Part shown: in pieces, positions 10,839-39,821 of the stretch | Layout of the letters: every line of letters begins with the position of its first letter | Numbering within the stretch: the first letter of the stretch is position 1 | Assembly (NCBI GenBank): GCA_964538485.1 | Contig: CAZIHJ010000007.1 | Location: forward strand, 1-52,466 | Direction of reading: 5' to 3' | DNA: 52,466 nt | From: an uncultured Chitinophagales bacterium | GTDB taxonomy: Bacteria > Bacteroidota > Ignavibacteria > UBA10030 > UBA6906 | Translations under genes and position numbers: made by a program | The notes under the pieces: generated by a model | Told to the model about the DNA's origin: nothing | What the model saw: only the letters and a program-made list of their open reading frames with translations | Database searches by the model: none

Positions 10839-10868
10839 TGAAACTTTTGCTTCCAGAATAACGTCTAA
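10839..10868 (+). promoter_or_regulatory. ECF sigma-type promoter (TGAAAC ... CGTCTAA) upstream of the TolC-MacAB operon
   Basis: TGAAACTTTTGCTTCCAGAATAACGTCTAA = AAC-N18-GTCTAA with a T-tract after -35; same architecture upstream of both ECF genes. Confidence 0.7.
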
Positions 10869-10937
10869 TCTCTTGACATTACTGTACAAGAGGTGGCTTT
10901 TTCCTCCCGAAATCCCACTAAATCGATGGAGTCAGAT

Positions 10938-12302
10938 ATGAGATCCCTGGCAATAACCGGTAGTATTGTGATGGCCGGACTGCTTCTGTTTGTGAATCTG
11001 GGTGCTGCCCAGCAAAAAACGCTGACGCTTGATCAGGCGAAACAGATCGCTCTCGAGCAAAATCTCAATGTTGTTCAGGCACAGAACAATGTTGAATCAG
11101 CGCAGGCTCGAGCGCTCGCTGCACGCGGCGAGTACCTGCCATTTGTTTCGGCGTCCGCCAATTGGAGGAGATCTCAAAATGATAGCCCCGGAGGGTCATC
11201 GGTGGTCTTATCCAGTGGCCAGATCATTCCGGGATCGTCCGGGTTCAGCGTGAATAATTCCTTCTCAACAGGTATTGATCTGAGCTATACGATTTTCGAC
11301 GGTTTCCGCCGCGAGGGAAATCTCGGGGCAGCGACTTCGAATGCTGTTGCTTCGGAACATACGTCCACCCGTGCACGCCAGACAGTCATTTACCAAACGG
11401 AATCCGCGTACATCAGTGTCCTCAGGAACGAGCAGCTCGTAAAGGTCAGCGAGGAGAATCTTAAACGTGACCTCAGGCAGTTGGAGCGTATTACGGAAGC
11501 AAATCGTGTAGGAGCGCTTTCTCTTGCAGACGTATATCGCCAACAATCACAAGTTGCCCAGGATGAACTGACCCTGATCCGTGCTCAGAACGACTATGAT
11601 AAATCCAAAGCAGATTTCGTTGCGCTCATTGGCCTGGATGTGTTTGAAGAGTATCTGTTCACCGATCCCGGATTGGAGAGTCAACTTGCAGCTCTTGAGA
11701 ATGGTGTACCTTCCACGACGCAACCGCACAACGTGGGTGAGCTTACTCAGCGTGCAATTGCAGCGCGTCCTGACTATCTCAGCGTTCAGGAAGGATACGA
11801 TGCGGCAGAGTCCGGCGTCTCCTCGGCACGTGCGGGGTATCTGCCGACCATCTCAGCGTCGGCCGGGTATTCACTGTCGAATGACCGCCTTTCCCGGATT
11901 ACGGACAACAAGTCACTGAACTGGGGTATTGGACTTCGCTGGAATCTGTTTGATGGGTTTCAGACGAACCAGTCTCTGCAAGCGGCAATTGTGCAACGGC
12001 GAAATGCAGAGGTGTCGATGCACCAGGCGCAGCGTGATATCAGTGTCGAGATGAAGAAAGCATTACTGGACCTGGATGCTGCAGGCAAGGCCCTTGAAGC
12101 AAGTCTGAAAGGACTGAAGTCCGCCCAGGAGGATCGCAAGATTGCAGAGGAACGGTACAACCTTGGTGCCGGAACACTTTTGGACCTCTTGACGGCAAGT
12201 GCCGGCTACGTCAGCGCGCAAGCGAACAAGGTGAACGCTGCCTATGGATATATCATAGCACAGCGGAATATCGAGTACGTGCTCGGTGAACGTACCTACT
12301 AA
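10938..12302 (+). CDS. TolC-family outer membrane efflux protein
   Basis: Signal peptide, two OEP repeats (YLPFVS, YLPTIS), ERYNLGAGTLLDLL; GGAG SD before ATG 10938. Confidence 0.92.
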   Translation: MRSLAITGSIVMAGLLLFVNLGAAQQKTLTLDQAKQIALEQNLNVVQAQNNVESAQARALAARGEYLPFVSASANWRRSQNDSPGGSSVVLSSGQIIPGSSGFSVNNSFSTGIDLSYTIFDGFRREGNLGAATSNAVASEHTSTRARQTVIYQTESAYISVLRNEQLVKVSEENLKRDLRQLERITEANRVGALSLADVYRQQSQVAQDELTLIRAQNDYDKSKADFVALIGLDVFEEYLFTDPGLESQLAALENGVPSTTQPHNVGELTQRAIAARPDYLSVQEGYDAAESGVSSARAGYLPTISASAGYSLSNDRLSRITDNKSLNWGIGLRWNLFDGFQTNQSLQAAIVQRRNAEVSMHQAQRDISVEMKKALLDLDAAGKALEASLKGLKSAQEDRKIAEERYNLGAGTLLDLLTASAGYVSAQANKVNAAYGYIIAQRNIEYVLGERTY

Positions 12303-12353
12303 CAGGTGTCCGATCAAAGTTTGATTCCACTCAACGAAAGGAGTGTTTGAATT

Positions 12354-13625
12354 ATGTCCGTAAAGAAATCAAAGAAAAAACTCTTCATCTTCTCCGGCAT
12401 CGGGTTGGTTGTGATTGCTCTGGTTTTGATTCTGTTCCTCGGGAGCAAAAAAGAGACCGTTGTCGCGATCCAAGTCGAGAAGGTAAAGCGTCACACCATT
12501 ACACAAGTGGTGACGGCAACTGGAAAGATCCAGCCGGAAGTTCAGGTGAAGATCTCTCCTGAAGTTAGCGGCGAGATTGTTGCGCTGCCGGTGAAAGAGG
12601 GTCAAAAGGTGAAGAAGGGTGATCTCTTGATGAAGATCAAGCCCGACACCTATGTGGCCCAGCGGGATCAATTTGCTGCAGGGCTGCTTTCTGCAAAGGC
12701 GGCGCTCAGCCGGACCGAGCCGGAGTTCAAACGCTTCGATGAACTCTATAAGAAGAATCTTGTGTCAGAGGCCGAATACGATCAGGCAAGGGCTTCATAC
12801 GAATCAAGCAAGGCACAATACGCGCAGGCAAGGGCGTCGCTGGATCAGGCGGAAGAAAGTCTGAGAAAAACAACGGTGTTTGCCCCAATGGATGGCACTA
12901 TCAGCCAGCTAAATTCCGAACTTGGCGAGCGTGTGTTGGGGACACAACAGTTTCAGGGTACAGACGTCATGACTGTTGCTGACCTTAGCCGCATGGAGGC
13001 CCGTGTTGATGTGAGCGAAACAGATGTAGTGTTGCTCTCTGTCGGTGATACAGCGCGTATTACGGTGGATGCCATGCCCGAACGCAAAGTAAACGCCATC
13101 ATTTATGAAATCGCAAACACGGCTAACACCAAAGGACTCGGAACGCAGGAGGAAGTGACGAATTTTCAAGTGAAGATGCGGATTATCGATAAGGGTGTAA
13201 CATTGCGCCCGGGGATGTCGATGACAGCAGATATTGAAACAGAGACAAAGCAGAATGTGCTCGCTGTACCGATTCAAAGTGTCACAACCCGTGCTCCGAA
13301 AATGGAACAGAAGGAGGGGGAAAAGGACGGGCAGCAGGGCGAATTCGTGGTGAATGGTGGCGGATCCGGTCCGGGTAATGGTGGAATGAAACCGCGCGAG
13401 GTAGTATTTGTAATGGAAAATGGCGCGGTGAAGACCATGCAAGTGAAACGTGGTATCAGTAATGCCTCGCACGTTGAAATCATCGAAGGGATTGATGAAG
13501 GTGCTGAGGTTGTCTCCGGGAGCTACAAAGCGATCAATCGCGAGCTGGAGGATGGTACCAAGGTTCGCATTGAAGAACCGCGCAACCAACGTACTGGTGG
13601 CGGACCTCAGGCAGAGAACGCATAA
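12354..13625 (+). CDS. MacA-like periplasmic adaptor (membrane fusion protein)
   Basis: N-terminal anchor, [21 protein letters not shown] lipoyl motif, coiled-coil hairpin, [15 protein letters not shown]. Confidence 0.92.
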
Positions 13626-13645
13626 CCGACATCAGGGAAAACACA

Positions 13646-14356
13646 ATGAATGTCATCGACCTCAAGAATATTACCAAGACCTACGATATGGGAGGAGCCG
13701 AGCAAGTGCAAGCATTGCGCGGAGCGTCACTCTCAATCGGTAAGAATGAATATGTTGCCATCATGGGTCCATCGGGTTCCGGAAAATCAACACTCATGAA
13801 CGTTATTGGCTGTCTTGATACGCCGACATCCGGACTGTACGAATTTAACGGTGTTAACGTCAGCGATATGGATGACAACGAGCTGGCAAAGATTCGGAAC
13901 AAAGAAATCGGGTTTGTTTTTCAGACATTCAACCTTCTTCCCCGGTCCGATGCTCTGCATAATGTTGAGCTTCCGTTGATCTATGCCGGCATCAATGCGG
14001 GCGAACGCCGGAGACGTGCGGAGGAAAAGCTGCAACACGTGGGTCTTGGCGATCGGATTCACCACAAGCCCAATGAACTTTCCGGAGGCCAGCGCCAGCG
14101 TGTCGCTGTTGCCCGTGCGCTTGTGACTAATCCGTCAATCATTCTTGCGGACGAGCCGACTGGAAATCTGGACTCCAAAACCGGCGAAGAAATCATGGGC
14201 CTGTTTGAAGAGCTTCACCGTCAGGGGAATACCATCATTCTCGTAACCCACGAAGCAGAGATTGCCGAGCACGCGCATCGCACGATCCGTCTGCGTGACG
14301 GGAAAATCGAAAGCGACGAGAAAGTCCTCAAACGAAAAACCTACGCTGTTGCATAA
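13646..14356 (+). CDS. MacB/LolD-type ABC transporter ATP-binding protein
   Basis: [44 protein letters not shown]. Confidence 0.95.
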
Positions 14357-14374
14357 CCAGCAAACGGAGGAAGA

Positions 14375-15604
14375 GTGTATTTGCTGACAGAGTTACAGGA
14401 AGGCCTCGCCATCTCGCTCAGGGCAATCCGGGCCAACAAGATGCGCTCTGTGCTCACCATGATGGGAATTTTCATCGGGATTCTTGCCGTGACAGGTATG
14501 GCGACCGCCATTGATTTTATCAATAAGGCGTTTGAGCGAAGTGCTTCGGCATTTGGCACAGAGACGATGTATGTCGAGAAATTCCCGTGGGTTTCGAATG
14601 ACGACTGGTCAACAATGCGCTACAGTGGTGATTTATAAGTTGAGTATGCTGATTTGTTGCAGATTCATGCATCGCTTTTGGAGGCGGTAACTTCTGTGTT
14701 GGGGACGCGTCGCCCGGTCAAGTTTGAAGGGAATCAGATGGAAAGCGCGATCATCACCGGAACCACGTCCGCGTACATGAAGACCTCCGGCAATTCCTCC
14801 ATCGATGGCAGGTTTTTCTCCGAAGAAGAGTCGTCGGGAGGGAGACCGGTATGCGCTATTGGTGCAATCGTTGCTGAAAACCTTTTCCCGAAGGGGGACC
14901 CCATTGGCAAGGTAATCCGTGTCGGAGGACATCCTTACACAGTATTAGGAGTGTTTGAGAAGCAGGGTGGTATGTTTGGAGAGTTTACCAGCGATACCAG
15001 GGTGTTTGTCCCTCTTCATTCTTTTATCAGCCATTTTGGTGGTCGCCGGTACGTCTCCATTCAGATCAAGGCCGTAAGTCAAAGAGCAATGGAAGATGCC
15101 AGACTTGAGGCAGAAGGCATTATGAGGAACATTCGACGCGTTCCTCCCGGCGCTCCCAGTGATTTTAGCATCAACGCTTCAGATCAGCTCACCAATTTCT
15201 TCGGACCCGTCAGTCTCACTATTGGTGCTATTGGTTTATTCATAACAGGATTGTCCCTCTTTGTCGGTGGAATTGGCATCATGAATATCATGTTCGTCTC
15301 GGTCACCGAACGCACGCGGGAGATTGGCATCCGTAAGGCCATCGGGGCAAAGAGACGGGCCATACTCCTTCAATTCCTTACCGAGGCCATTGTGCTGTGT
15401 ATTGTGGGAAGTTTGATCGGCCTTTTCGTTTCATTTATTCTTGTTCTTATTGTCAGTAACATGATGGACCTTGAAGCATCCATGCCATTTGCTGTGGTGA
15501 TTGTCGCACTGGTTGTTTCGGTTGTGGTGGGAGTCGTTTCCGGATTTCTCCCTGCCTATCGTGCTGCAAAAATGGACCCCGTGGAGGCATTACGATATGA
15601 GTAA
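14375..15604 (+). pseudogene. MacB/FtsX-type ABC permease interrupted by one in-frame TAA at 14636-14638 (pseudogene or sequencing error)
   Basis: ORFs 14375-14638 and 14654-15604 share a frame. The first has ANKMRSVLTMMGIFIG (TM1); the second has GIGIMNIMFVSVTERTREIGIRKAIGA and PVEALRYE. Confidence 0.75.
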
Positions 15605-16856
15605 AACCTTGCTTGATCTTGCGATGTTCAAGGAAAGCCTCGCAATGGCCTTGAATGCAGTTCGTACCAACAAGCTTCGTTCAGCCCTTACTCTGGTGGG
15701 TATTGTTGTCGGCATTTTTTCGATCATTTCTGTTATGACGGCAATGGGTGTACTCCGTAATGCCATTGAAGAGGGCATTATGCAGCTTGGAGCAAACACG
15801 GTGCAACTCCAGAAGTTTCCTCCCGGTGGGCCCGGTGGTGGGGAACGGTGGAGATTCCGTAACCGGAAGAACATCACTTACGAGCAGGCACTGCAGATTC
15901 GGAACAAAGCAACCCTCGCGGAAGCAGTTGGCATCGAAGCATGGGAGTTTGGGAGGATAATCTGGTGGAGCGGACAGAAAACCAATCCCAATGTTTCCGT
16001 CGCGGGCGAGAACCCCGAGGGACTGATAACAAATGACTGGGTCGTTGATAATGGCCGTGGTATTACCAACGAAGACATGGATCTTGGCCGTGACGTGGTG
16101 GTGATTGGGAATCCGGTTGCAGAAAAGCTCTTTCCCCCGAGTATTAATCCGCTCGGTGAGACAGTACGTATTGATGGGTCAATGTATCAGGTGATCGGTG
16201 TTCTGAAACCGAAAGGTGGTGTTCTTGGGGACGGCGACCAGGATAATCTTGTTATCATGCCCATCACCACGTTTTTCCAGAAATATGGAAAAGACAAAGA
16301 CATCCATGTGATGGTAAAGGCATACAGCCGCGAAGTTGTAGACGATGCCATTGAGCAATCCCGCATGATTCTTCGTGCCGCACGCAAAGTCCCGCCTGGT
16401 GCCGAGGATGACTTTGGATACTTTTCCAACGACTCCATCCTGAAGCAGTTTAATGAGTTCACGCTGTATTTTCGCATTGGTGTCCTTGTTATCAGTTCTA
16501 TTGCACTTCTCGCGGCCGGCGTCGGCATTATGAATATCATGCTTGTCTCGGTAACGGAGCGGACACGTGAAATTGGCATCCGCAAGGCAATCGGAGCGCA
16601 AAAGAGAGACGTCCTCTCACAGTTTATTATCGAAGCGATCATTCTTTGTCAGATTGGAGGCGTTCTTGGCGTTCTCCTCGGTATCATTGTTGGGAACGTT
16701 GTCATCGGGCTTTGGTTGGGGACGTCGATTGTAATTCCGTGGGATTGGGCTGTGATTGGAGTTGTAGTGTGTTCGCTTGTAGGGATGATCTTTGGCGTCT
16801 ATCCTGCGTGGAAAGCATCGACACTCGATCCCATCGAGGCATTGCGCTACGAATAA
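15597..16856 (+). CDS. MacB/FtsX-type ABC permease (second permease)
   Basis: NKLRSALTLVGIVVG, GVGIMNIMLVSVTERTREIGIRKAIGA, LDPIEALRYE; ATG 15597 overlaps the upstream stop region. Confidence 0.93.
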   Translation: MSKTLLDLAMFKESLAMALNAVRTNKLRSALTLVGIVVGIFSIISVMTAMGVLRNAIEEGIMQLGANTVQLQKFPPGGPGGGERWRFRNRKNITYEQALQIRNKATLAEAVGIEAWEFGRIIWWSGQKTNPNVSVAGENPEGLITNDWVVDNGRGITNEDMDLGRDVVVIGNPVAEKLFPPSINPLGETVRIDGSMYQVIGVLKPKGGVLGDGDQDNLVIMPITTFFQKYGKDKDIHVMVKAYSREVVDDAIEQSRMILRAARKVPPGAEDDFGYFSNDSILKQFNEFTLYFRIGVLVISSIALLAAGVGIMNIMLVSVTERTREIGIRKAIGAQKRDVLSQFIIEAIILCQIGGVLGVLLGIIVGNVVIGLWLGTSIVIPWDWAVIGVVVCSLVGMIFGVYPAWKASTLDPIEALRYE

Positions 16857-17025
16857 ATCGAATCCCATAAGGATTGTTCGCGCAGACACGAAACTGGGCG
16901 TAGCGTTCAGCATGTCCTGGTTTGGAGGTCTCCGGTATTGAGTCCTTCTTGATTTTGCCCTCCATTTTCTTATCTTTTTCCTGCAATTAGTATTTCTCTC
17001 CTCTGAAGAGGCGCCGACAAATCGC

Positions 17026-18579
17026 GTGTGGTTGAAGTTCTCCCTGCATACACTCCAGGTAATACTCATCGTTGCGTCCGTGATTTCAAGACCGTTCCTT
17101 TCAGCCCAGGAATTGCCCTCCAGTCCGGTTTTCAAGAGCTATCGCACTCCCGGTCTCGGTGCGCTCGTCGTACAATCCGACGCCACATATCAGATGTGGC
17201 AGACGTTCCAATTAACACAGAAGGCAAACGCCGGAGATGCTCTTGCACAGCATGAACTCGGCATCAGATACCTCATAGGTCGTGGTGTTCAAGCCGATAC
17301 CGCAAAGGGAGCATATTGGACACTCAAAGCCGCGGCCCAACAACTGTTGCCGGCGCGATTCAACCATGGCATCCTCCTGCAGAATGGTTGGGGAGTGGAG
17401 TGGAGTCCGTTCAAGGCGTATGAAGAATTTGCGTGGTGCGCCGAACGTGGAATGCCGGAGGCGCAGTATGCAATGGCTCAGTTTCTCACGGATAACATCA
17501 TTGTTCCACGTAACCGGGCTGAGGCCTATAAGTGGGTGAAGGCCGCCGCAGACTCGGGATTTGAACCGGCAAAGGAAGTTCTACCCGATTTTATTAAACG
17601 TGGCTACGGAGTTGATTCATCATCGGTATTGCCGGTCATACACTCCCCATCGTTGCAGCCGCGATTGCAATGGACTCCGGTATTTCTGGATTTTGATGCG
17701 GATACCTTGAGCAAAGTGCAAGACGGTACTTTGCTTAAGGATCTTCTCCGTGAAGCATCGCCAGCACTGCAGCAGGCTCTTGGCAATCAAACAACAGATA
17801 CATCTCTGGTCATGGATAGCGTTGCGATCCAGTTTGTGAATCGGGCAGCCAATGCAGGAAGTCCCGAGGCCCTCGTTGTGCTTGGACGTTGTTATGAAAA
17901 AGGGATATTTGTTGAGAAGAGCGCCGTAAAAGCAATAATGTTCTATGTCCAGGCTGTGCGGTTTGATTCCCCACACGCACGAGAGTTGTTGTGGACAGTC
18001 TTGGAGCACCAGCCCTCAGTTGCGACATTGAAAGCTCATGCTGCGCGCGGAGATCAAGACGCAATGTTCAGTCTTGCTGCGCTTGCCGCCCTTGGACTTC
18101 AGCATCCGTTGTTGAGCAGTCAGTCTGCTGTAACGGAAGCGCAGGCTTTAGAATTGCTTGAGTCGTCATCGAAAACCGGTCATATACCTTCGATGATCGA
18201 ATTGGGTCTTTGCCACTTTTCGGGGCGTTGGGTGAAGGAGGACAGGATTCGGGCCCTGAGTATTTGGTCGGATGCCGAACACCTGGGAAGTCTTGATGCC
18301 GCGGTTCGGGTTGCCGCAACGCTTGTCATCAATTCAAGAATCGCCTCTGATTCCCTTGTGGAAACTCTTCAAACAGGTATTAAGGAGGGCTCGGTCCTGG
18401 CACAGGTTGCCGTTGGTTACTGTTTTGAGCACGGAGTGGGCGTCGAACGCAGGAAGGGAGAAGCAGCGCGATGGTATCGTATCGCTGCATCACGTGGAAG
18501 TCAGGATGGATACAGGGCGCTCATCCGCCTTCATGATGAGATTCGTCCCGAGGAAGTCCGTTATCGTATTACCGATTAG
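17026..18579 (+). CDS. Secreted Sel1-repeat (SLR/TPR) protein
   Basis: Signal peptide, repeated AQHELGIRYLIGRGV, AQYAMAQF, ALVVLGRCYEKG and AQVAVGYCFEHGVGV motifs. Confidence 0.85.
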   Translation: MWLKFSLHTLQVILIVASVISRPFLSAQELPSSPVFKSYRTPGLGALVVQSDATYQMWQTFQLTQKANAGDALAQHELGIRYLIGRGVQADTAKGAYWTLKAAAQQLLPARFNHGILLQNGWGVEWSPFKAYEEFAWCAERGMPEAQYAMAQFLTDNIIVPRNRAEAYKWVKAAADSGFEPAKEVLPDFIKRGYGVDSSSVLPVIHSPSLQPRLQWTPVFLDFDADTLSKVQDGTLLKDLLREASPALQQALGNQTTDTSLVMDSVAIQFVNRAANAGSPEALVVLGRCYEKGIFVEKSAVKAIMFYVQAVRFDSPHARELLWTVLEHQPSVATLKAHAARGDQDAMFSLAALAALGLQHPLLSSQSAVTEAQALELLESSSKTGHIPSMIELGLCHFSGRWVKEDRIRALSIWSDAEHLGSLDAAVRVAATLVINSRIASDSLVETLQTGIKEGSVLAQVAVGYCFEHGVGVERRKGEAARWYRIAASRGSQDGYRALIRLHDEIRPEEVRYRITD

Positions 18580-21500
18580 TGAGGCGCGCTGTCTATGGCG
18601 CGTCGCAAAACTGTCAACATCTCGTTGATCTGATAGGGTTTGTGGATAAAATCCAGTGCACCCGACTGGAGCAGTTCTTTTTTCTTCTCTTCTCTGATGA
18701 ACCCGGTGCTAAAAAGGATTCGTACCCCCGGATTGATTCTTTGCAGCTGCTTGAAGACCTGCTCACCCGAGAGCTTTGGCAAACCCATGTCCGAGATGAC
18801 AATGTTGATTGAGTCTTTATTCTTCCCGTACACGGCGACCCCTTCTTCACCGTCCCGCGCTTCGAGGACCGCGTATCCTGCCCTGGTCAAGACATCGACA
18901 ATGAGGGAGCGTAACACTTCCTCATCTTCAATAACAAGTATAGTCTCCCCGTTCCCTCGAGCCGGGGCCTGAGCCTGGGCGGCTTCCGAAGCGTTCTTCT
19001 GTGAAACAATGGGAAAATATACCGAAAACGTTGTATGCTCGCCGACACGGCTCTCGACGCCAATATGTCCGTTGTGTGATTTGACAATTCCATGGACAAT
19101 GGAGAGCCCGAGCCCCGTTCCTTTGCCGATTTCTTTTGTGGTGAAGAACGGCTCGAAGATTCTGCGCTGCACTTCTGGCGGGATCCCGGCACCTGTATCG
19201 GAGACACGCAATACGGCATACTCGTCTGCTGTGATCATCCCAAACCGTTCCTTGACTGTGTGGCCCGAAACAGACTCCAACGCAATTGACAAAACTCCAT
19301 TCCTTTGATCTGTCATGGCATCACGGGCATTAATGCAGAGGTTCAATAATACCTGGTGAATCTGCCCTTCGTCACCCATAATCACACCTTGCTTCATATT
19401 GATCGAGATGCCAATCTCGATTGTCTTCGGGAATGAATGATCGAGGATCTTTTTCACTTCGTTGACGATATGCGACAAGGAAATCGGGGAGAGCTTCGCA
19501 GCCTCGGCTCTTGAGAACTGCAACAGCTGTTTTGCGATAGCAGCGCCACGGAGAGTGGTTTCTTCGACCATGTTTGCATATCGAACGATTTGAGGATCGG
19601 TAGACTGTTGTTTGATCATTTGCGCTGCGGTCAGGGTTACTCCCATGACATTGTTGAAATCGTGGGCAATGCCGCTAGCGAGCTGTCCGACGGCCTCCAT
19701 TTTTTGCGCCTGCAGCAACTGGTCTTCCAGCCGTTTGCGCTCAGTGTTATCAAACAAATATCCCTTTATCCCGGTCAGTTCTCCATGGTCGTCGAATGAA
19801 CCGATGAGATTTGCCACCACATAAATTGGTTTGCCGTCCTTCCGACGGAGTTCGGTTTCAAAATAGTCGAGTTTCTTCATCCTCCTCACGGATTCGAAGA
19901 TATTCTCACGACTCTCCACATCCTTGTGAAGGACGCGGCAGTCATTCCTGAGGGCCTCCTCCACGGAGGCGAATCCGAAGATGCGAGCAAATGCGGAATT
20001 GCACGCCAACACCTTCCCGTCGGGAGCCGAAATAAAATCACCCGTGAGGTCGTCTTCGAACATCTGACGATAGCGTTCTTCGCTCTCGCGCAGAGCGACT
20101 TCGGAACGCTTCCGCTCAATTGCCTTGGCCACTTGTGTGGAAACGAATTCCAGCATGTGCTGCTCAACAACCCCATACGCCTTTGCATCCGAATAGTGCT
20201 GTACGACCATCGCCCCGATCGTCTTGTTCGCAACAATGAGAGGTACACCGAGCCAGATGGGAGAGGGGGCACCGACCAACTCTGCCTCTCCTTTTCTGAT
20301 GAGTTCAGAGAGAATCTCGTCCGGGCACAACAGCGATCGGCCGTTACGAAGCACGTATGCCGTCAACCCTTTACCCGGTGGCATTGGCGGTGATGGGACG
20401 TCTACCTCATCAACGAAGTAGGGAAAGTGTAACAGATCCTGCTGCTCGTCATACAGGGCAATGTAGAAGTTGTTTGCAGGCATCACCTCTTGAATTATCC
20501 CATGAACTGCCTTGTAGATATCATCAAGGTTGAGTGCGGTATCTGCCGCTTGTGCAATGCGGTACACTGCATCCTGGAGTTTCTCGGCCCTCTTTTCTTC
20601 TGTAACATCCCGCGCAACACCCATTAACGCAAGTGGTTCACCGTTTTCACCACGGACGACAGAGGTGGAGAGAGAGATGAGAAACTCGCTGCCGTCTTTC
20701 CGGCAGTTCCATAACTCGCCCTCCCATGCACCGTGCAACGTTCCCTCGAGCACCTGTTCAATGATCTCCGGGGAATTTCGCCGGGACCGAACGATGCTGA
20801 TGTGTTTCCCGATAACTTCGCTTTCCTTGTATCCGTACATCCGGAGAAAGGCATCGTTCACAAAGAGAATATTGTCATCAAGGTCTGTAAGGGTAACACC
20901 TTCTGTAATGCTGCGTAGCGCATGGGCAAGCATTGCCAGCCGGCTCTCTGTCTGTTTGCGTTCGGTGATATCGCGCTGCGTTCCCCATGCTCTGATGAGG
21001 TGACCGTCTTCAACCGTACCCACGAGATTATTCAGGAAATAATGCATGATGCCATCACTGTCGGGCTCGTGGGACTCGGCGTTCAAGAGCCGATAGCCGG
21101 AACGGATAAAGCCCTGAATGTAGTGAAGATTTTCTGTATCGCTCCGTATGAGCAGCTCCTTGAGGCGTGTTCCCTGGAGGTCCTCAGCGCTGGAGAGTCC
21201 ATACATCCGGGCCATAACATCATTGCATTGGGCCAGATAACCGTGTGAGTAGAGGAAGTCGATTTGGTCCTGTTCGCATAATGAAACCGGCATCGGCACG
21301 TCAATCTCAAGGCGCCAAATGGCCTCGGAACTCTGCTCGACAAATGCCCGATAACGTTCCTCACTTTTGCTCAGTGCTTCAACGGCATCCTTCCGCTCCG
21401 TGATATCACGGTAGTTGACGACAATCGCGCGGACAGCAGGATCAGTCAGGAGATTTGTTCCCATCCCTTCCATCCATTTCAACGCGCCGTTCTTGTGAAG

Positions 21501-22568: not shown

Positions 22569-22685
22569 CCTCTGGAAATGTGAACGAACCTGACCCGGCC
22601 CTCGTTGCTGTACCCAACCTGAATCGATTTCAAAAGTGAAAAATTCGGTACTTTCAAGATACCCCTGCTGTGCAAAGCGATGTCG

Positions 22686-26209: not shown

Positions 26210-26225
26210 GAACGTGAATCCTTGA

Positions 26226-27233: not shown

Positions 27234-27257
27234 TGTGGGGCCTCTCAAAAAGGTTCG

Positions 27258-29334: not shown

Positions 29335-29463
29335 CTATGAACGATTGTTGTAGTCCTTTAAGAACTTTTCAGAGAGAATATTCACATTTGGAGGAGAAGA
29401 ATCAAGATTCATGGCAAATGCTTGTCGATCTTTCGTTGCTGAGAGTCGAACTCCTGTTCGTTG

Positions 29464-30591: not shown

Positions 30592-30618
30592 ATGATTCTC
30601 CATTGTAATCTTCATGAG

Positions 30619-33273: not shown

Positions 33274-33393
33274 GGCGATCAGTCCTTTTTCATTGTTTGT
33301 CTAACAGTGATTGTCGTTGCCCCTGCGGGTATTCCAAGGGTCCAGCTTCAGCACTGATGGTGTGTTGATAATGAGAGGTCCGACAAACCCGCA

Positions 33394-34533
33394 CTATCGT
33401 TTTCTAATATTGATATCAGAATTGACTGTTTCGAGCACGATGGTTTCTCCTCCACCATTTATGACGTATGTTGACCTGATTTCTTTTTCCTCGCGGTTAC
33501 CTGATTTGGTTTGCGATGGAAAGTCCGACCTGATCTCGTACGTTTCGTCATGGTCCCGCCACCGTCCCTGAATACGGATACGGGCTTCAATGGTTGCCTT
33601 TGCGTTTTCCGGAAGTATGAGAGTAATTTCACCCGCGGCCGAAGAAAGCCGGCTTCTCCCATTCCCGGACGGGGTCAATTCAGCGCGAATCTCGCCACCT
33701 GCTGTACGCGCTTCCACCGACCCGGAAATTCGCTCAAGGAGAACGTCGCCACCGCTTGTTGCTGCGCGAATGGAACCGCTTCCGCCTTTCAGTTGAATAT
33801 CGCCCCCCGATGTTTTCATGTCCACTCTTCCGGAGACCTTTCCTACGACGATGTTTCCGCCCGAAGTTGAGACCACTGCTTCGCTTCCCACATCACCGAT
33901 CATGATATCGCCGCCAGAAGTGGAGGCCTTCAACGACTTTCCCACGTCACCCAGCGTAATATTGCCGCCTGAAGTGTGAAGGGCAAGTTCACCGGTGATG
34001 CTCCGAAGGTCAATATCACCACCCGAGGTGTTCAGCGAGGCGTTCCCGGTGATCTTGCCGGTTCTGATGTCGCCGCCGGAGGTTCGGACTCTCACTTCAC
34101 CCTCTATATCATCCATCCTGATGTTTCCCGCGGATGTTTCCACGTCAAGGGTACCGATCAGTTTGTCCCGCAAGGTGATGTCACCGTGCGTGGTCTCAAT
34201 CGTGACATCAAACTGTGTTGGAATCGTAACCATCAACCGTGTCCCTTCATACCCCCAACCGTGACGATTGACAATGCGGACTGTATTTCCTGACTGTGTC
34301 ATCTTCAGGTCATCAATCTCTTCTTCATCAACATATTCAATCTTCACGGCAATTTCGTTCCGGTCCCATGTACTCAACCGAACATCGCCTCCATCGAGTG
34401 CGACGTCCAGCAGCCCACCTTTTGTGACTGTAAATGTTTTCTCCTTGAATCGACCATCATCATCCTTTTGGGCAGCAACAACTGCTGTACAAAGTAAAAT
34501 GACAGTGAGAATAGTGTGAATAGTCTCCTTCAT
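33394..34533 (-). CDS. DUF4097 beta-strand-repeat secreted protein with TSGG repeats
   Basis: Signal peptide, seven TSGG[DN][IV] repeats at an 18-aa period, C-terminal ETVNSDINIRKR. Confidence 0.88.
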   Translation of the reverse strand: MKETIHTILTVILLCTAVVAAQKDDDGRFKEKTFTVTKGGLLDVALDGGDVRLSTWDRNEIAVKIEYVDEEEIDDLKMTQSGNTVRIVNRHGWGYEGTRLMVTIPTQFDVTIETTHGDITLRDKLIGTLDVETSAGNIRMDDIEGEVRVRTSGGDIRTGKITGNASLNTSGGDIDLRSITGELALHTSGGNITLGDVGKSLKASTSGGDIMIGDVGSEAVVSTSGGNIVVGKVSGRVDMKTSGGDIQLKGGSGSIRAATSGGDVLLERISGSVEARTAGGEIRAELTPSGNGRSRLSSAAGEITLILPENAKATIEARIRIQGRWRDHDETYEIRSDFPSQTKSGNREEKEIRSTYVINGGGETIVLETVNSDINIRKR

Positions 34534-35498
34534 TGGTTCTCTACCTCCTGAAGTACTGCTTTGGAACGGATGCGTACGTAGTTATTATTGTCGGTTTGCA
34601 TTCGGTCATGTAATACGCGCTTCAACTCCTGATCAGTTCCGGTTCCAACAACTCGTGCCGAGTCGAGCGCGTTAATGGCAGCAATGCGGACACCGGAATT
34701 CTTATCGTGCATGAGTGCATATAAAAAAGCATCTTTGATTTCTTCGTCGAACTGGAATCCCCGTAATACGCGCAAGGCCTCACGGCGTACACCTGGATTT
34801 GTATCTGCTTTCAATGCGGAAACCAGGCCGGCTTTCAGTTCGCGATCAGGGAGCTTCAAACTCCGTGCTCCAACAGCATTGACCGATCGCAGTCGTATAC
34901 CAGGGTTGTGGTCATTCACCATGGCATGTGCGAGTGCCTGTTGCACCCGATCGTCGTTGACACTTCCCCTGATTCGCACTGGTGTTACTGCATCGAATGT
35001 AAATTCAATCTCGCCGTCGCTCGCATCCGAATCAATAAAACGAAGACCCGTAATGTGCGTTGAGCCCTGATTTGTTGATGTCAGTAAAGCGGCATTGGTT
35101 GAATCATTCGGGGAATCAGGAGAGAGGTGGGAGGATGAAAACCAGAAGTACCCACCGAGCAGTCCTGCGGCGAGCATCCCAACGCCGCCCAGGACAATGC
35201 GGTACGAAGGAAATATCGAATCCAAAAGCTCAAGAAAACGCTGTCCCACTGTTCGTTCTGATTCCTCCTGCGCTAGTGCCTGACGCAGTTGTGCTCTTGC
35301 TTCATTCAGAAGCTGCTCATTTACTTGAATTGTGTGCCGGTGAGCAAGCACACCGTGAAGCTGTTTCAGCTCTTCGAGTTCACGTCCACATGTCTCACAG
35401 TCTACCAGATGAGCCTGAAGTCGTTGGTATTCTGTCTCACTCAACTCATCATACATAAACCGGGGGAGGAGTCGCATGGCGTTCGTATGTTCCATCAT
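34530..35498 (-). CDS. Zinc anti-sigma factor (zf-HC2) with a TM segment and C-terminal HEAT repeats
   Basis: HLVDCETC (HxxxCxxC), TM IVLGGVGMLAAGLLGGYFWF, repeats D.N.G.R..A..AL; GAAGGAG SD. Confidence 0.88.
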   Translation of the reverse strand: MMEHTNAMRLLPRFMYDELSETEYQRLQAHLVDCETCGRELEELKQLHGVLAHRHTIQVNEQLLNEARAQLRQALAQEESERTVGQRFLELLDSIFPSYRIVLGGVGMLAAGLLGGYFWFSSSHLSPDSPNDSTNAALLTSTNQGSTHITGLRFIDSDASDGEIEFTFDAVTPVRIRGSVNDDRVQQALAHAMVNDHNPGIRLRSVNAVGARSLKLPDRELKAGLVSALKADTNPGVRREALRVLRGFQFDEEIKDAFLYALMHDKNSGVRIAAINALDSARVVGTGTDQELKRVLHDRMQTDNNNYVRIRSKAVLQEVENQ

Positions 35499-35505
35499 TT
35501 CTCCT

Positions 35506-36087
35506 TCAATCCTTCTCGTGGTATTCCCGCAGCAGCTCGCGCATCGCATGTGTAGCAAGAAAGAGATACCGTTTTACCGTTCCTTCGGTGCAGTCCATCA
35601 TTGTTGCAATTTCCCGGAGTTTGTATCCCTGATAATGCCTCAGGGTGAATACCATCTTCTGTTTTGGTGCCAGACAATCGAGTGCCGCTTCGATTCTTTC
35701 TGCAATTTCGGTGGTGATGCGTGCTTGATCAGGGGCGGCCGTGTCAGCCGTGATCGCTTGTGTATGTGGCTCTCCATCTTCATCAGTGAACGCCCCACGC
35801 ATTGGCGATTCCGTTTGTTGCTGTCTCCTTGTCCGATGAGTCAGGCATACATTCGTGGTAATTCTGTAAAGCCAGGTACTAAACTCACTCCGGAACTGAA
35901 ATTTCTTGATTCCTCGGAATACTCTGATAAACACTTCCTGATAAATATCTTTGGCATCGTCGGCATTTGACACGTAACGGGTGGCAATGGCAAGCACTTG
36001 TCGGTCGTAACGAAGAACAAGTTGCTCAAATGCCTCTGTATTACCGGCCTGGGCGCGTAGGATTAATTCATTCTCTGAGTATTGCAT
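35506..36087 (-). CDS. ECF RNA polymerase sigma factor (copy 1)
   Basis: AFEQLV, DAKDIYQEVF, FSTWLYRITTN, EIATMMDCTEGTVKRYL. Confidence 0.95.
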   Translation of the reverse strand: MQYSENELILRAQAGNTEAFEQLVLRYDRQVLAIATRYVSNADDAKDIYQEVFIRVFRGIKKFQFRSEFSTWLYRITTNVCLTHRTRRQQQTESPMRGAFTDEDGEPHTQAITADTAAPDQARITTEIAERIEAALDCLAPKQKMVFTLRHYQGYKLREIATMMDCTEGTVKRYLFLATHAMRELLREYHEKD

Positions 36088-36114
36088 GCAGGCCTGGTGA
36101 TGGTGTTCTGTGCA

Positions 36115-36144
36115 TTAGACTTGTGACGCAGGAAAAAGGTTGTA
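36115..36144 (-). promoter_or_regulatory. ECF-type promoter upstream of sigma copy 1
   Basis: Minus strand TACAAC-CTTTTTCCTGCGTCACAA-GTCTAA (AAC-N18-GTCTAA), ending 27 nt before the ATG. Confidence 0.7.
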
Positions 36145-36163
36145 GTCGCAGGAGGGAAAAGGG

Positions 36164-36196
36164 GGGCCGAATGAACACAATTGCAGAATCCGGCCC
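36164..36196 (-). terminator. Weak hairpin separating the two ECF units
   Basis: GGGCCGGA/TTCGGCCC 8-bp stem with one G-U pair, 17-nt loop, CCCTTTT tail. Confidence 0.4.
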
Positions 36197-36211
36197 AAAT
36201 TGTCGGCATTG

Positions 36212-37204
36212 TCAGCAGTGGATGGACAATTGACGTGTTCCTCCACTCGTTTTTGAGAGACTCTCCCTAAATGAATGGTGCAAGTCCTCCATTTCAAAAC
36301 GAAGATCATCCCTCAAATGGTCGAGCTCAAGCCGAAGCTCCTCCAGCAGTGGGTCCAATTCTTCCATTTCGAAGCCAAAGTCATCCCAATCGTCCAGTCT
36401 CTCATGAAGGTCCCCACGAAAATAATATTGGTATCCCCTTGGTGAATTGAGGTCGCCTACATCCATTGTAAGCTTCATGGAGCCGCCTTTGCGAAGAATC
36501 TCGACGTCCACCTTTTCGTCGTTGTCGTAGTTGTTCAGCGCCCTTCGAATGTCGCGAACATCTTCAATGACGTCTTTGCCGATTTTTGTAATCACATCGC
36601 CGGCTTTGAAGCCTGCTTTCTCTGCCGCGCTTTCTTCTTCGACCTCTTCAACGAGTACCCCACGTTTGTTCGGTGCCTGAAAATACGCCCCCAGTTGCTC
36701 GTTGAGTTCCCGCAGTTCAAGTCCCTTTACGCCCGATCTCTCGAGCATGTGCATTGCAGGTGGGATCGGAGGGGCGACAGCAACCGCCCGCCGGCGTGGA
36801 ATTGCGCCCAGGGTTACTTCCAGCGACATCCGTTCGTCTCCTCTGACGACAACGAGGTTTGCCGCGGTCTCTGGTTTGGTAGCTCGTACTGCGTCCGAAA
36901 GGTCCGAGGCATCATTAATTGTTATTCCTTGAAATTCAACGATGATGTCTTCATTCCTAATGCCTGCCTTTTCCGCCGGACTATCATCCACAACATCATT
37001 GACAAGAGCTCCTTTGGTGGTCTTGCTGTTGATTGAACGGGCAAGTCGCGATGTCATGTCCTGCGTAAATACTCCCAGCCATCCGCGATCCCTCGATTTG
37101 TCTTTGACTACTATGACATCGGGAGGTGCTGCAAGCTGCGGACTAATACTCCCAGTAAACAGTGTGGCCAGGCAGACGATACAGCCGAGTATGAATATCT
37201 TCAT
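36212..37204 (-). CDS. Secreted tandem-PDZ protein without a protease domain
   Basis: Signal peptide; RGWLGV...SPAEKAGI...DII and GVLV...SAAEKAGFKAGDVI; acidic helical tail; no trypsin domain. Confidence 0.85.
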   Translation of the reverse strand: MKIFILGCIVCLATLFTGSISPQLAAPPDVIVVKDKSRDRGWLGVFTQDMTSRLARSINSKTTKGALVNDVVDDSPAEKAGIRNEDIIVEFQGITINDASDLSDAVRATKPETAANLVVVRGDERMSLEVTLGAIPRRRAVAVAPPIPPAMHMLERSGVKGLELRELNEQLGAYFQAPNKRGVLVEEVEEESAAEKAGFKAGDVITKIGKDVIEDVRDIRRALNNYDNDEKVDVEILRKGGSMKLTMDVGDLNSPRGYQYYFRGDLHERLDDWDDFGFEMEELDPLLEELRLELDHLRDDLRFEMEDLHHSFRESLSKTSGGTRQLSIHC

Positions 37205-37266
37205 TTGTCATTCCTTCGTTGTTTGCGGCTTTTCAATACGGACGATATTCCTGTTGCATTGTTTCG

Positions 37267-38400
37267 TTACTTTCCTTTCAAGACTTCGTAGAGTGCCCCC
37301 CGGGCCTTTTCTCCTCCGATATTTCCAAGATAGTATATGGCATCGCGCCGAAATCCGTAGTTATTGTGTGAAAGGGCCACTGTTCTGAGAAAATCCACCG
37401 CCTTGTCATTCCCCACTTCGGCAATCGCATAGAAAATTGTTTCAACCGGTTCGCGACGTTGGTGCGGTATGCTATTGAAGAGATCAATCAATAGTCCCAC
37501 GGAACGGTTTTTATCCGGTGTTTCGTTACCTATGAAATCAATGGCATACGCCTGGAGTTGTTCGTTGGTGTCCTTAAGAACAATTTCCATGAGCACGGGA
37601 AGGACATCATGCTTTTTGAAATCAACGAGGACATCCAACGATGCCTCACGCAAGGGAAGGGGCTGTTTGATGTCAACCGCAATGTCACGGAGTGTTGCAA
37701 AGGATTTGTCGTCCTCCTTTGCTTCGCCGAGTGCATACAGCGCCTCCATCTTGAGGCGTGTTTCGGGATCGAGGTCTTCATCAACATTCATTGCCAGGGG
37801 AGTCATGCTGATTCCCCTTGGGTACCGCCAGCGTACCATGGATCTGCTTTGTCTTTTAAGTTGGCGCTCGACATCGCGCATGTGTGGAGCCATTGAGTAT
37901 GCATATCCGCCGCCGGGTGCTTTGGTAATACTCACTGCACCGGCTGATGTCCCCGGAGCGATGACATACACATCAGATTCAAGTTGAGCAAGATCAGAGA
38001 TGGCATCGTCGTAGTAACTGCTCTTCGGATACTGCTCGATGAATTGCTCGTATGCAGCTGTTGCCTTTTTCCTATCCTGGTGTCGCAATGCGTAAGCCGA
38101 CCAGTACCGTGCATCATCAACGTACTCGCTCTTGGAGTACTTGCTGATGACTTCGGTAAATTTCTTGCGTGCTTCGTTCCATTGCTCGTCAAGAATCAAT
38201 GTGTATCCCTCTCGATAGGTGTTGTACGCCGGGTCATCGGATTGTTCCTGGGCGAGCGGAAGCAAAGAGAGAGCCGCTGCAGGCGGGCGATCCGGTGGAG
38301 GTGATGTTGCTGCACGCGCTCGTGATGTCGTGGTCTGTGCATGAATGGAAACAGCCGCGAGCAGCACGAACGCGAGGTGATAGAGAGATATCCTGTTCAT
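37267..38400 (-). CDS. Secreted TPR (BamD/YfiO-like) plus HEAT-repeat protein
   Basis: Signal peptide, WNEARKKF...SEYVDDARYWSAY, YPKSSYYDDA, then HEAT-like helices (RRDAIYYLGNIGG). Confidence 0.8.
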   Translation of the reverse strand: MNRISLYHLAFVLLAAVSIHAQTTTSRARAATSPPPDRPPAAALSLLPLAQEQSDDPAYNTYREGYTLILDEQWNEARKKFTEVISKYSKSEYVDDARYWSAYALRHQDRKKATAAYEQFIEQYPKSSYYDDAISDLAQLESDVYVIAPGTSAGAVSITKAPGGGYAYSMAPHMRDVERQLKRQSRSMVRWRYPRGISMTPLAMNVDEDLDPETRLKMEALYALGEAKEDDKSFATLRDIAVDIKQPLPLREASLDVLVDFKKHDVLPVLMEIVLKDTNEQLQAYAIDFIGNETPDKNRSVGLLIDLFNSIPHQRREPVETIFYAIAEVGNDKAVDFLRTVALSHNNYGFRRDAIYYLGNIGGEKARGALYEVLKGK

Positions 38401-39203
38401 AATACACTCCTGGAGTATTTTGCATGAATCAATCGTACCGAGTCTCTTGTTGCTTCGGCCATCCGGATCTTAAAAAGGAGGTTTTCCTGTTCGATGCCAC
38501 TGCGGATGATTTCGACGTTGGGAAGATCTGATTGTTGTTCCATGTTTGCCAGTTCAATAAGAATTTTCTGGAGATCTCTTAACAAGAGAACGGAACGGGG
38601 ATCGAGGTGTTCCTCGCCGAGGTTTCTGGCCTCCCGAATCAATTCCCGTGACACTGTTCGTTCAACTGAAAGGTCAACAGGACTACCATCAGCTGTTTTC
38701 AGATTTGAGAGTCCGACCAACAACACCTTGGAGCGGCGCAAATATTGTCCCATCGGGTCTACCGTGTTCTCAACATGTTGCACAGTGTTCAGAGGAGGTT
38801 CCGGGTGCGCCGTCTGCCGACGCATCCATTCGTTTGATCCGAACCATAACAGCCCTAAAACTGCCACCGCACCTCCCGTAGCAACCATAAAGCGTCGTTG
38901 TGGAACAATAGTATCGTGAAGATATGAGAAGGGAGTCTCCCACCACTTCATGGGTGGCGGTGATGATTTTGCGATGCGTCTCTCCACGCTTCCTGCAAAT
39001 GCATCCCAGAAGGCAGTTTGCCGTTCATCTGCCGGAGACAAGGAAGGTGGTAATACCTCTGCAAGAGTTGACCGTAGCCCTTGTAATTCCTTGGCGCACT
39101 CAATGCAAGATGCGAGATGGTGTTCAACTTCGTTGTGCAGTGTAGGGGAGAGTCCGTCGTGGAGATAGTCATACAATTGTTGTCTAACGGCTTTGTGTGT
39201 CAT
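38397..39203 (-). CDS. Zinc anti-sigma factor (zf-HC2) with a TM segment and helical periplasmic domain
   Basis: HLASCIEC, TM FMVATGGAVAVLGLLWFG; ATG 39203 overlaps the sigma stop (ATGA). Confidence 0.85.
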   Translation of the reverse strand: MTHKAVRQQLYDYLHDGLSPTLHNEVEHHLASCIECAKELQGLRSTLAEVLPPSLSPADERQTAFWDAFAGSVERRIAKSSPPPMKWWETPFSYLHDTIVPQRRFMVATGGAVAVLGLLWFGSNEWMRRQTAHPEPPLNTVQHVENTVDPMGQYLRRSKVLLVGLSNLKTADGSPVDLSVERTVSRELIREARNLGEEHLDPRSVLLLRDLQKILIELANMEQQSDLPNVEIIRSGIEQENLLFKIRMAEATRDSVRLIHAKYSRSVL

Positions 39204-39760
39204 AATGCCATTTCCGTTCTGAAATACTCCAGACGTGTTCGCATTTTCTTCAATCCACGAAACAGATGGGTTTTTACCGTTCCTTCCGAGCATGCAAGTA
39301 TTCCACTTACCTGTTTTGTTGAGAGCCCTTCGATATGGCGGAGCAGCACTACCGCTCTTTGGAGTGTGGGCAGTTCGTGTAATGCCTTTTCAATGTGTGT
39401 TCGTAGTTCCCCGTTCTCCGGTGTCTCCTGTGCGGCATAGGGAGTATGGTGTTCTCGCTCTTCATTGAGGGCGAAACGTGCCCCATGTGCCTTCTCTTTT
39501 TTTACACGGTTGAGTGCCATGTTGGTGACGATGCGATACAGCCACGTGGAAAACTCGGCATCTCCGCGAAAGGATGGTAAACCTTGATACACACGGACGA
39601 ACGCCTCCTGTGCCACGTCTTCGGCCTGTTCGTGGTTACGGAGAAATCCATGTGAGATGTTGTACGCCTGCTTCATGTAGCGCTCAACGAGCTGGCGGAA
39701 TGCCTCATGGTTTCCCTCCTGTGCTGCAATGATGAGTTGCCGTTCATCGGCAACGCCCAT
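39200..39760 (-). CDS. ECF RNA polymerase sigma factor (copy 2)
   Basis: AFRQLVERY, AEDVAQEAF, FSTWLYRIVTN, GTVKTHLFRG; start placed at ATG 39760. Confidence 0.95.
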   Translation of the reverse strand: MGVADERQLIIAAQEGNHEAFRQLVERYMKQAYNISHGFLRNHEQAEDVAQEAFVRVYQGLPSFRGDAEFSTWLYRIVTNMALNRVKKEKAHGARFALNEEREHHTPYAAQETPENGELRTHIEKALHELPTLQRAVVLLRHIEGLSTKQVSGILACSEGTVKTHLFRGLKKMRTRLEYFRTEMAL

Positions 39761-39791
39761 GTGGAGAACCTGTTCATGTGTTTGGTGATGT

Positions 39792-39821
39792 TTAGACAAG
39801 ACAGGGAGGCAATCGGTTGAC
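39792..39821 (-). promoter_or_regulatory. ECF-type promoter upstream of sigma copy 2
   Basis: Minus strand GTCAAC-CGATTGCCTCCCTGTCTT-GTCTAA (AAC-N18-GTCTAA), ending 31 nt before the ATG. Confidence 0.7.

Follow-up and report, generated by a model that had tools for sequence, protein, structure and literature searches.

What does it mean when three operons of one genome are preceded by what looks like the same promoter? The question is raised by a 52,466-nt stretch of DNA (the window, positions 1 to 52,466 of contig CAZIHJ010000007.1, assembly GCA_964538485.1) from an uncultured Chitinophagales bacterium of the Ignavibacteria. Here, the pattern AAC-N18-GTCTAA stands before the tolC gene of a MacAB-TolC-like exporter operon and before each of two genes, sigma-1 and sigma-2, that encode extracytoplasmic function (ECF) sigma factors. 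A first-pass annotation had read these sites as the mark of a single ECF regulon with one specificity. We confirm that the three look-alike sites are real, but one shared promoter and one regulon are not supported by the related sequences. In fact, the window probably carries three distinct ECF-type promoters, with sigma-1 and sigma-2 each autoregulated and the tolC-macAB operon read by a third ECF sigma encoded outside the window.

To begin with the sites themselves, an exhaustive scan of both strands gave exactly three matches, at 10842-10868 (+), 36115-36141 (-) and 39792-39818 (-); the 30-nt coordinates reported earlier include three bases 5' of AAC. As claimed, all three are intergenic, identically spaced and aimed at the next gene, which is tolC, sigma-1 and sigma-2, respectively, and the start codons lie 69 nt (ATG 10938), 27 nt (ATG 36087) and 31 nt (ATG 39760) downstream of the last base of GTCTAA. 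By the gene map the window is 94% coding, and the three sites fall, correctly oriented, within the 6% that is non-coding. The earlier estimate of about 0.4 chance matches at uniform composition is correct (2 x 52466 / 4^9), while dinucleotide-preserving shuffles gave a mean of 0.18 matches and reached three in 0 of 100 shuffles. Relaxed scans of the window (spacer 17-19; NTCTAA; GTCNAA) found no extra intergenic site, and the extra matches obtained with shorter -10 cores (GTCT, GTCTA) all lie inside genes.

We then compared upstream regions across about 170 related loci from Ignavibacteriota relatives; homologs of the window proteins carry Ignavibacteriota or Bacteroidota names of metagenome-assembled genomes (MAGs). 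Each site is kept at its orthologous position, next to proteins that are 50-80% identical, while the spacers are not conserved, which agrees with the first reading of the sites as ECF-type promoters. Aligning orthologous upstream regions, as had been proposed at the outset, thus found all three sites conserved, but in three different classes.

For tolC, an alignment-based scan with one genome per species gave 80 loci, and the motif was sought in the 260 nt before tolC as AAC plus the best match to AACTTT/CGTCTAA. The resulting class, TG(A/T)AAC(T/A)TT-N13/14-CGT(C/T)(T/A)A, is present in 75 of the 76 spacers between tolC and cca, the same-strand gene upstream of it, which encodes a CCA-adding enzyme. 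Its frequencies are T93 G100 (A78/T17) AAC (T76/A21) T97 T100, then 13-14 unconserved bases, then CGT (T60/C38)(T69/A29) A94. Since TG was not part of the search pattern, selection bias is unlikely to have produced this motif. The gap from AAC to CGT is 16 nt at 62 sites and 17 nt at 13, and the element lies 35-140 nt before the ATG in a fixed orientation. Among the -10 heptamers, CGTCTAA occurs 18 times, CGTTAAA 13, CGTTTAC 11, CGTCTAT 9 and CGTTTAT 7, with others making up the rest; GTCTAA is thus found at 18 of 75 tolC sites, and the exact AAC-N18-GTCTAA at only 4 of 75. Judging by these heptamer and -35 frequencies, selection at tolC has kept TG.AAC.TT and CGT..A rather than GTCTAA.

The sigma genes tell a different story. 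A metagenome scan with the sigma-1 alignment gave 80 loci, seven of which also carry the sigma-2 operon; these seven, together with look-ups of further orthologs, formed the sigma-2 set. For sigma-1, the upstream motif search required only AAC and GTC. At 74 of 75 sigma-1 orthologs (50-70% identity) we found C-x-x-CAAC(C71/T28)(T59/A37)TT...(G55/A43)GTCTAA(T/C), with GTCTAA in 63 of the 66 distinct sites and a spacer of 17 or 18 nt in equal shares. The sigma-2 class, GTCAAC(C/G)(G/A)..N..GTC(T/C)AA with a spacer of always 18 nt, is present at 14 of 14 distinct ortholog sites. The nine bases common to the window sites are therefore the generic ECF core (AAC, GT) plus CTAA, and CTAA is conserved at the sigma genes, not at tolC. 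Immediately before AAC, both sigma classes have C, and the tolC class has A or T, with C in 4%. One position further upstream, the tolC class has G in 100% and the sigma-2 class T in 100%, whereas the sigma-1 class is unconstrained, though never T and G in 14%. The base before GT is C in 100% of the tolC sites, G or A in the sigma-1 class and T or C in the sigma-2 class, and after GT the sigma genes always have C, the tolC sites T60/C38. These differences fall on positions that are known to determine which promoters an ECF sigma reads. Such specificity comes from a few contacts (in RpoE, Arg171 with -31, Ser172 with -34 and Asn84 with -12 and -13; PMC7776599), and in B. subtilis the choice of the ECF sigma for a promoter depends on one or two bases of the -10 (CGTA, CGTC, CGAC; PMC5758882).

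The same separation appears when the sites are scored. Matrices were trained on ortholog sites only, with the window excluded, and each window site is the top match in the window to the matrix of its own class: 27.8 bits for tolC (75 orthologous cca-tolC spacers only), 30.4 bits for sigma-1 (66 distinct sites) and 27.8 bits for sigma-2. With the sigma-1 matrix the window tolC site reaches 10.0 bits (rank 3 in the window), and with the sigma-2 matrix 4.6 bits (rank 147); under the tolC matrix, the sigma-1 site scores 2.4 and the sigma-2 site -17.0 bits. Own-class medians are 28.6-34.1 bits and cross-class medians -15.4 to 4.6 bits, so that the ortholog matrices show no cross-recognition and the single specificity proposed at first is not supported. 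The window tolC site itself is borderline for sigma-1 and clearly negative for sigma-2 by this scoring.

The classes also stay apart within single genomes. The closest relative (GCA_046160825; TolC 80% and sigma-2 72% identical) keeps each one, with TGAAACTTTT..CGTCTAAT before tolC and GTCAACCGTCC..TGTCTAAT before sigma-2. On contig CAVVIT010000005, tolC has TGAAACTTT..CGTTAAA (L052) and sigma-2 has GTCAACCGATCG..TGTCTAAC (L163), with the -10 TGTCTAA; in the MAG CAZAFL, tolC has TGTAACTTT..CGTTAAT (L060) and sigma-2 again ends in ..TGTCTAAC (L177), -10 TGTCTAA. In these two genomes, the tolC and sigma-2 sites have only AAC and GT in common. The shared pattern of the window would then be only apparent: its lineage carries the CGTCTAA variant of the tolC -10 together with a longer spacer, which produces AAC-N18-GTCTAA.

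How would such a system work? We envision that each membrane-bound zf-HC2 anti-sigma releases its sigma, and that the resulting sigma-RNA polymerase holoenzyme would transcribe the sigma's own operon. Sigma-1 would drive sigma1-antisigma1-DUF4097-DUF5916, and sigma-2 would drive sigma2-antisigma2-TPR/HEAT-PDZ, each from its own class-specific promoter. The promoter of tolC-macA-ABC-permeases-sel1 would be read by a third, sigma-W-like ECF factor encoded elsewhere, and the exporter would thereby belong to a regulon for envelope or antimicrobial stress. As a rule, ECF sigmas control their own expression, and their genes lie with those of their regulators (PMC7826278). The autoregulation assumed at first is in line with the conserved signature before both sigma genes, from which we infer that each sigma reads its own site. 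As for the third class, promoters that respond to sigma-W/V have the -35 tGAAACnTTTt, and selectivity is highest at autoregulatory promoters (PMC5758882). The tolC class comes close to the sigma-W-type consensus: it has the TGAAAC -35, the T-tract that follows it, the CGT -10 and 16-17 nt between AAC and CGT.

Where, then, would the third sigma be encoded? Across about 2 Mb of loci, tolC is the only gene preceded by the strict tolC-class pattern. Relaxed patterns and matrices run over the loci added the upstream regions of DUF5916 and of some sigma-1 genes, and no sigma gene. A phmmer search of both sigmas against all open reading frames (ORFs) of at least 140 aa in the loci returned sigma-1 and sigma-2 orthologs only. 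A truncated ECF paralog that lies some 9.5 kb upstream of tolC (L034, L036, L049, L051; ~1-700, -) was considered as the third sigma and rejected, its upstream motif being unrelated. That conserved motif is GTGTAGCGT...GCGTCATAC, and it lies beside a perfect palindrome like GGTGACTCGAGTCACC. A possible tolC-class site before sigma-2 in L167-L169 scores below 12 bits and was not used.

Several points weigh against three separate specificities. The loci searched cover two kinds of neighbourhood, and in their ~2 Mb no ECF gene has a tolC-class site upstream. Promoter function and the pairing of sigmas with sites are deduced from conservation, which could partly reflect other constraints, orthologous sites being related by descent. 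The sigma-2 matrix was built from only 6 distinct sites, the 8 later distinct sites fitting it. Overlap between the promoters of ECF paralogs is known (B. subtilis sigma-M, -W, -X and -V), especially with CGTC-type -10 elements (PMC5758882). Moreover, the 10.0 bits of the window tolC site under the sigma-1 matrix exceed all 600 random 260-nt background segments (maximum 9.3) and are just below the weakest accepted sigma-1 site, at 11.8. With a score so near the threshold, some, perhaps weak, reading of the window tolC promoter by sigma-1 is possible in this lineage.

These points lead to the strongest alternative, the model of the first-pass annotation, which we consider unlikely overall: sigma-1, sigma-2 or both might read the tolC promoter directly, alone or with another sigma, so that envelope signals sensed by the anti-sigmas would switch on the exporter. 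AAC, the 18-nt spacing and GTCTAA are common to the three window sites, and the same is true of the closest relative; the tolC site is the third-best match to the sigma-1 matrix in the window and stands above the background segments. A T-tract next to the -35, which the tolC site has, favours overlap among ECF paralogs (PMC5758882). The bases selected at the 75 tolC ortholog sites, however, are TG.AAC and CGT rather than CAAC and GTCTAA, and the two genomes described above have CGTTAA(A/T) before tolC while their sigma-2 sites retain TGTCTAA. Scored with the sigma-1 and sigma-2 matrices, the tolC ortholog sites have medians of -10.3 and -7.1 bits, respectively, and ECF sigmas are reportedly very sensitive to single-base changes (PMC7776599).

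Other genes of the sigma-1 neighbourhood bear on this alternative too. In the closest relative (L161 3791-6909, contig JBJXHC010000075), sigma1-antisigma1-DUF4097 is absent between the PDZ gene and DUF5916 (window 30619-37204), and a sigma-1-class site of 30.3 bits nevertheless precedes DUF5916. Thus, a sigma-1 target that is not autoregulatory keeps the sigma-1 consensus and not that of tolC, which argues against tolC being such a target. In the window's lineage, the sigma-1 operon looks like an insertion or a relocation; in this relative, DUF5916 is split into two ORFs. In L096 (~12774-12850), L110, L129 and L131, the DUF5916/CBM9 outer-membrane-like gene is preceded by a sigma-1-class site (CATC for CAAC; 21-28 bits) and a tolC-class site (16-21 bits) 35 nt apart. 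In addition, 5 of 69 distinct sigma-1 upstream regions have a further, distal tolC-class site (at least 15 bits), against 0.1 expected from shuffles, which hints that a third sigma may feed into sigma-1 expression in those 5 lineages. These sites (L121 ~4009, L113 ~155, L137 ~343, L139 ~9854, L140 ~9850) score 15-22 bits and lie 124-221 nt before the sigma-1 ATG. Such tolC-class sites near sigma-1 operons suggest that the two regulons touch in some lineages, which favours the alternative. Tandem sites of two classes, in contrast, are expected if two sigmas act on the same gene and are redundant if one sigma reads both.

A more speculative scenario, which we hold to be improbable, adds evolution to the picture. 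In the window's lineage, the ancestral sigma-W-like tolC promoter may have drifted to CGTCTAA and a longer spacer, which fits the -10 of sigma-1 and sigma-2, so that the exporter is being recruited to both regulons, while elsewhere the third sigma may have gained sites before sigma-1 and DUF5916, forming a small ECF cascade. If the tolC promoter had drifted in this way, an overlap of regulons would be seen evolving by one or two base changes.

Could the element before tolC be something other than a promoter? It might bind a regulator or form part of a leader, with tolC transcribed by read-through from cca. This is quite unlikely, even though in every locus tolC directly follows cca in the same orientation and we found neither a terminator-like site nor a sigma-70-type promoter in the window cca-tolC spacer. 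The element has the exact two-block architecture of ECF promoters, with 13-14 unconserved bases between the blocks, a fixed orientation and a position 35-140 nt before the ATG. It is not palindromic, it matches no Rfam family (none matches anywhere in the window), and its two blocks reappear ahead of DUF5916 and sigma-1 in other lineages. Finally, a functionless chance coincidence can be dismissed: the pattern fixes only nine bases and the first scan was not exhaustive, but no shuffle of 100 gave three matches, all three sites are correctly oriented in the non-coding 6%, and each is conserved at its orthologous position in dozens of divergent genomes.

Some further matches deserve mention. Matches to the tolC-class matrix inside cca (16-26 bits in 5 loci) were rejected as promoters because they overlap a conserved peptide, LMKLCRADITSKN. 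They are probably a by-product of coding constraint, although an internal promoter is also possible. They lie about 440 nt before tolC in L005, L006, L010, L013 and L026, and the window has an 8-bit match at ~10514-10554 (+). A weak tolC-class-like site, CGAAACAAT-N13-CGTCCGT, is present in the spacer between the TPR/HEAT and PDZ genes (window 37225-37263, -); at 7.2 bits it is the fourth-best tolC-matrix match in the window. The features of the three operons are collected in the table.

Table. Positions in the window of the predicted promoters and of the genes and terminator associated with them
Feature	Position	Strand	Details
Putative tolC-class ECF-type promoter	10839-10869	+	TGAAACTTTT-N13-CGTCTAAT; AAC 10842-10844, CGT 10862-10864, GTCTAA 10863-10868
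tolC-like outer membrane factor	10938-12302	+	First gene of operon; Pfam OEP 3.6e-63; TIGR01844 5.4e-52, under cutoff
Periplasmic adaptor (MacA/HlyD-type)	12354-13625	+	HlyD_D23, HlyD_3, Biotin_lipoyl_2; TIGR01730 204.7 bits (cutoff 94.9)
Separate ABC ATPase	13646-14356	+	Equivalent of MacB nucleotide-binding domain; ABC_tran 1.9e-33; best NCBIfam match, N-terminal MacB part, 2.6e-80
MacB-type permease 1	14375-15604	+	MacB_PCD + FtsX; in-frame TAA 14636-14638
MacB-type permease 2	15501-16856 (ORF)	+	MacB_PCD 1.2e-34, FtsX 2.2e-21
Sel1-repeat protein	17026-18579	+	Last gene of cluster; Sel1 8.7e-32; position kept in many orthologous loci
DUF5916/CBM9 gene	30619-33273	-	Downstream in sigma-1 operon
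DUF4097 gene	33394-34533	-	Downstream in sigma-1 operon
Anti-sigma 1	34530-35558 (ORF)	-	N-terminal zf-HC2 (HxxxCxxC), one membrane span, C-terminal HEAT repeats
ECF sigma factor 1	35506-36087	-	193 aa; Sigma70_r2 + Sigma70_r4_2; TIGR02937 113.3 bits (cutoff 42.9)
Putative sigma-1-class ECF promoter	36114-36145	-	ACAACCTTTTT-N13-AGTCTAAT; AAC 36141-36139, GTCTAA 36120-36115
Double-PDZ protein	36212-37204	-	Sigma-2 operon; no protease domain detected
TPR/HEAT YfiO-like protein	37267-38400	-	Sigma-2 operon
Anti-sigma 2 (zf-HC2)	38397-39293	-	Sigma-2 operon (remainder of operon spans 36212-39293)
ECF sigma factor 2	39200-39760	-	186 aa; Sigma70_r2 + Sigma70_r4_2; TIGR02937 ~113 bits (cutoff 42.9)
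Putative sigma-2-class ECF promoter	39791-39824	-	TGTCAACCGATT-N12-TGTCTAAA; AAC 39818-39816, GTCTAA 39797-39792
Intrinsic terminator	39897-39933	-	16-pair stem then TTTTT; insulates sigma-2 promoter from upstream gene

The gene identities given by the first-pass annotation (OEP/TolC, HlyD-type adaptor, ABC ATPase, two MacB_PCD+FtsX permeases and two ECF sigmas, each with a zf-HC2 anti-sigma) are borne out. Both sigmas match region 2 and region 4 and have no region 3 match, which is the architecture of ECF (group 4) factors. They are 39% identical to each other, and their best solved-structure relatives are ECFs of the AlgU/RpoE/SigW type, RpoE (1or7) included. The residues equivalent to Arg171, Ser172 and Asn84 of RpoE are Lys, Arg and Thr in sigma-1 and Lys, Thr and Asn in sigma-2, which is consistent with two distinct specificities. 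An attempt to assign the tolC class from the Ser172 and Asn84 equivalents was dropped: sigma-2 and B. subtilis SigW both have Lys-Thr in region 4 yet differ in the base before AAC, and the residue code is not deterministic enough for this purpose.

Directly downstream, the anti-sigma genes overlap or abut the sigma genes. The zinc-binding signature is present in both products (H-LVD-C-ET-C in anti-sigma 1, H-LAS-C-IE-C in anti-sigma 2), and PF13490 scores are 26.4 and 28.5 bits, respectively (cutoff 22.2). The zinc anti-sigma sensing proposed earlier is thus right as to the motif. Zinc sensing itself was over-read, as the zf-HC2 motif alone does not imply it and both proteins are single-pass membrane proteins in which a hydrophobic span follows the anti-sigma domain and precedes a long C-terminal part. 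This topology suggests that the signal comes from the envelope or from outside the cytoplasm, rather than being zinc or the redox state. The order sigma1-antisigma1-DUF4097-(DUF5916) is conserved across the sigma-1 loci, and the gene order of the sigma-2 operon is the same in L161, L163 and L165.

In the exporter operon, the order cca-tolC-macA-ABC-ftsX(2-4)-(sel1) is found in every locus with a covered spacer (80 Ignavibacteriota MAG loci, L001-L080), with TolC orthologs 55-80% identical to the window protein; the number of permease paralogs differs among lineages (2 to 4). All parts of a MacAB-TolC tripartite system are present: outer membrane factor, adaptor, MacB_PCD+FtsX permease and ABC ATPase. 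The stop codon in permease 1 replaces a conserved Lys of the orthologs (..RNRRD[FM]K VEYA..), for which a nonsense mutation, an error of sequencing and a split gene are all possible explanations; permease 2, whose true start is probably near 15600, and the remaining exporter genes have intact frames. Between the exporter and the sigma loci (18576-25007, -) are two large hybrid histidine kinases, one with PAS x4-GAF-HisKA-HATPase-REC x2 and the other with CHASE8-HAMP-PAS-HisKA-HATPase-REC, and we found no link between them and the three promoters. The window also encodes a surface protein (SdrD-B/CarboxypepD_reg, with Por_Secre_tail) sorted by the type IX secretion system (T9SS) at 39961-42789 (-) and a T9SS plug-like protein at 7092-8405 (+), consistent with an organism of the FCB group.

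How do these promoters and operons compare with known systems? RpoE of E. coli is an ECF sigma for envelope stress that autoregulates, and its promoter consensus is GGAACTT-N16-TCAAA/TCTAA. As in the RpoE-RseA system, sigma-1 and sigma-2 have the sigma2+sigma4 architecture and a co-transcribed membrane anti-sigma. The conserved putative promoter just before each of them likewise combines AAC, a T-rich stretch and a (G)TCTAA -10, and the PDZ protein of the sigma-2 operon recalls PDZ-dependent signalling in the RpoE pathway. The differences are that the base before AAC is C and not G, that the anti-sigmas are of the zf-HC2 type, unlike RseA, that the PDZ protein lacks a detected protease domain, and that sigma-1 has Arg and Thr, and sigma-2 Thr and Asn, at the Ser172 and Asn84 equivalents. 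The tolC class resembles the sigma-W, -M, -X and -V promoters of B. subtilis in its -35, -35-proximal T-tract, spacing and CGT -10 (PMC5758882), and here as there several paralogs coexist whose promoters differ by one or two bases around AAC and CGT. However, the host is a diderm of the Ignavibacteriota and not a Firmicute, and the fourth -10 base of the tolC class is T or C, not the A that defines sigma-W selectivity. The likeness of sigma-1 and sigma-2 to SigW itself is at the family level only (NCBIfam SigW models 116-131 bits, cutoffs 209-243).

MacB-family pumps driven by ECF sigmas also have precedents. In Bacillus, the secondary SDP resistance induced by sigma-W is YknWXYZ. This pump belongs to the MacB family (PMC4887032, PMC5985334), and the induction of secondary SDP resistance by sigma-W has been reported (PMC6818787). 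Like the window operon, it has a separate ATPase (YknY), an FtsX/MacB_PCD permease (YknZ), a MacA-like adaptor (YknX) and, as predicted for the window, a TGAAAC...CGT ECF promoter, and the annotation of the closest relative gives YknX-type domain matches for the adaptor. The window pump differs in being tripartite, with a TolC-like factor, two to four paralogous permeases and a Sel1 protein, and it has no YknW. Compared with E. coli MacAB-TolC, it has the same OEP factor, barrel-sandwich/lipoyl adaptor and permease with a MacB periplasmic core and FtsX, but its ATPase gene is separate rather than fused and is followed by two permease genes, one with an in-frame stop, and tolC is first in the operon rather than unlinked. 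In P. aeruginosa, the ECF sigma PvdS controls PvdRT-OpmQ, a precedent for an ECF sigma that drives a tripartite MacB-family pump away from its own gene. PvdS acts through an iron-starvation box and iron-regulated control unrelated to the window motifs, and no siderophore genes are seen in the gene context of the window. PvdRT-OpmQ is a MacAB-like pyoverdine exporter, and in gene layout YknXYZ and LolCDE are closer to the window pump than the fused E. coli MacB is (PMC5985334).

Nothing in this locus departs from known ECF biology, and the system is of an ordinary kind. Its lesson is that the generic ECF core (AAC with GTC or CGT), common within one genome, is insufficient to assign genes to one sigma; it was the orthologous upstream regions that separated three apparent specificities identical at nine bases. 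The comparison yields three well-supported promoter consensuses for the Ignavibacteriota, a phylum rich in uncultured members, which can be used for regulon prediction. It also points to a phylum-wide cca-tolC-macAB-sel1 cluster that would stand behind a sigma-W-like stress promoter.

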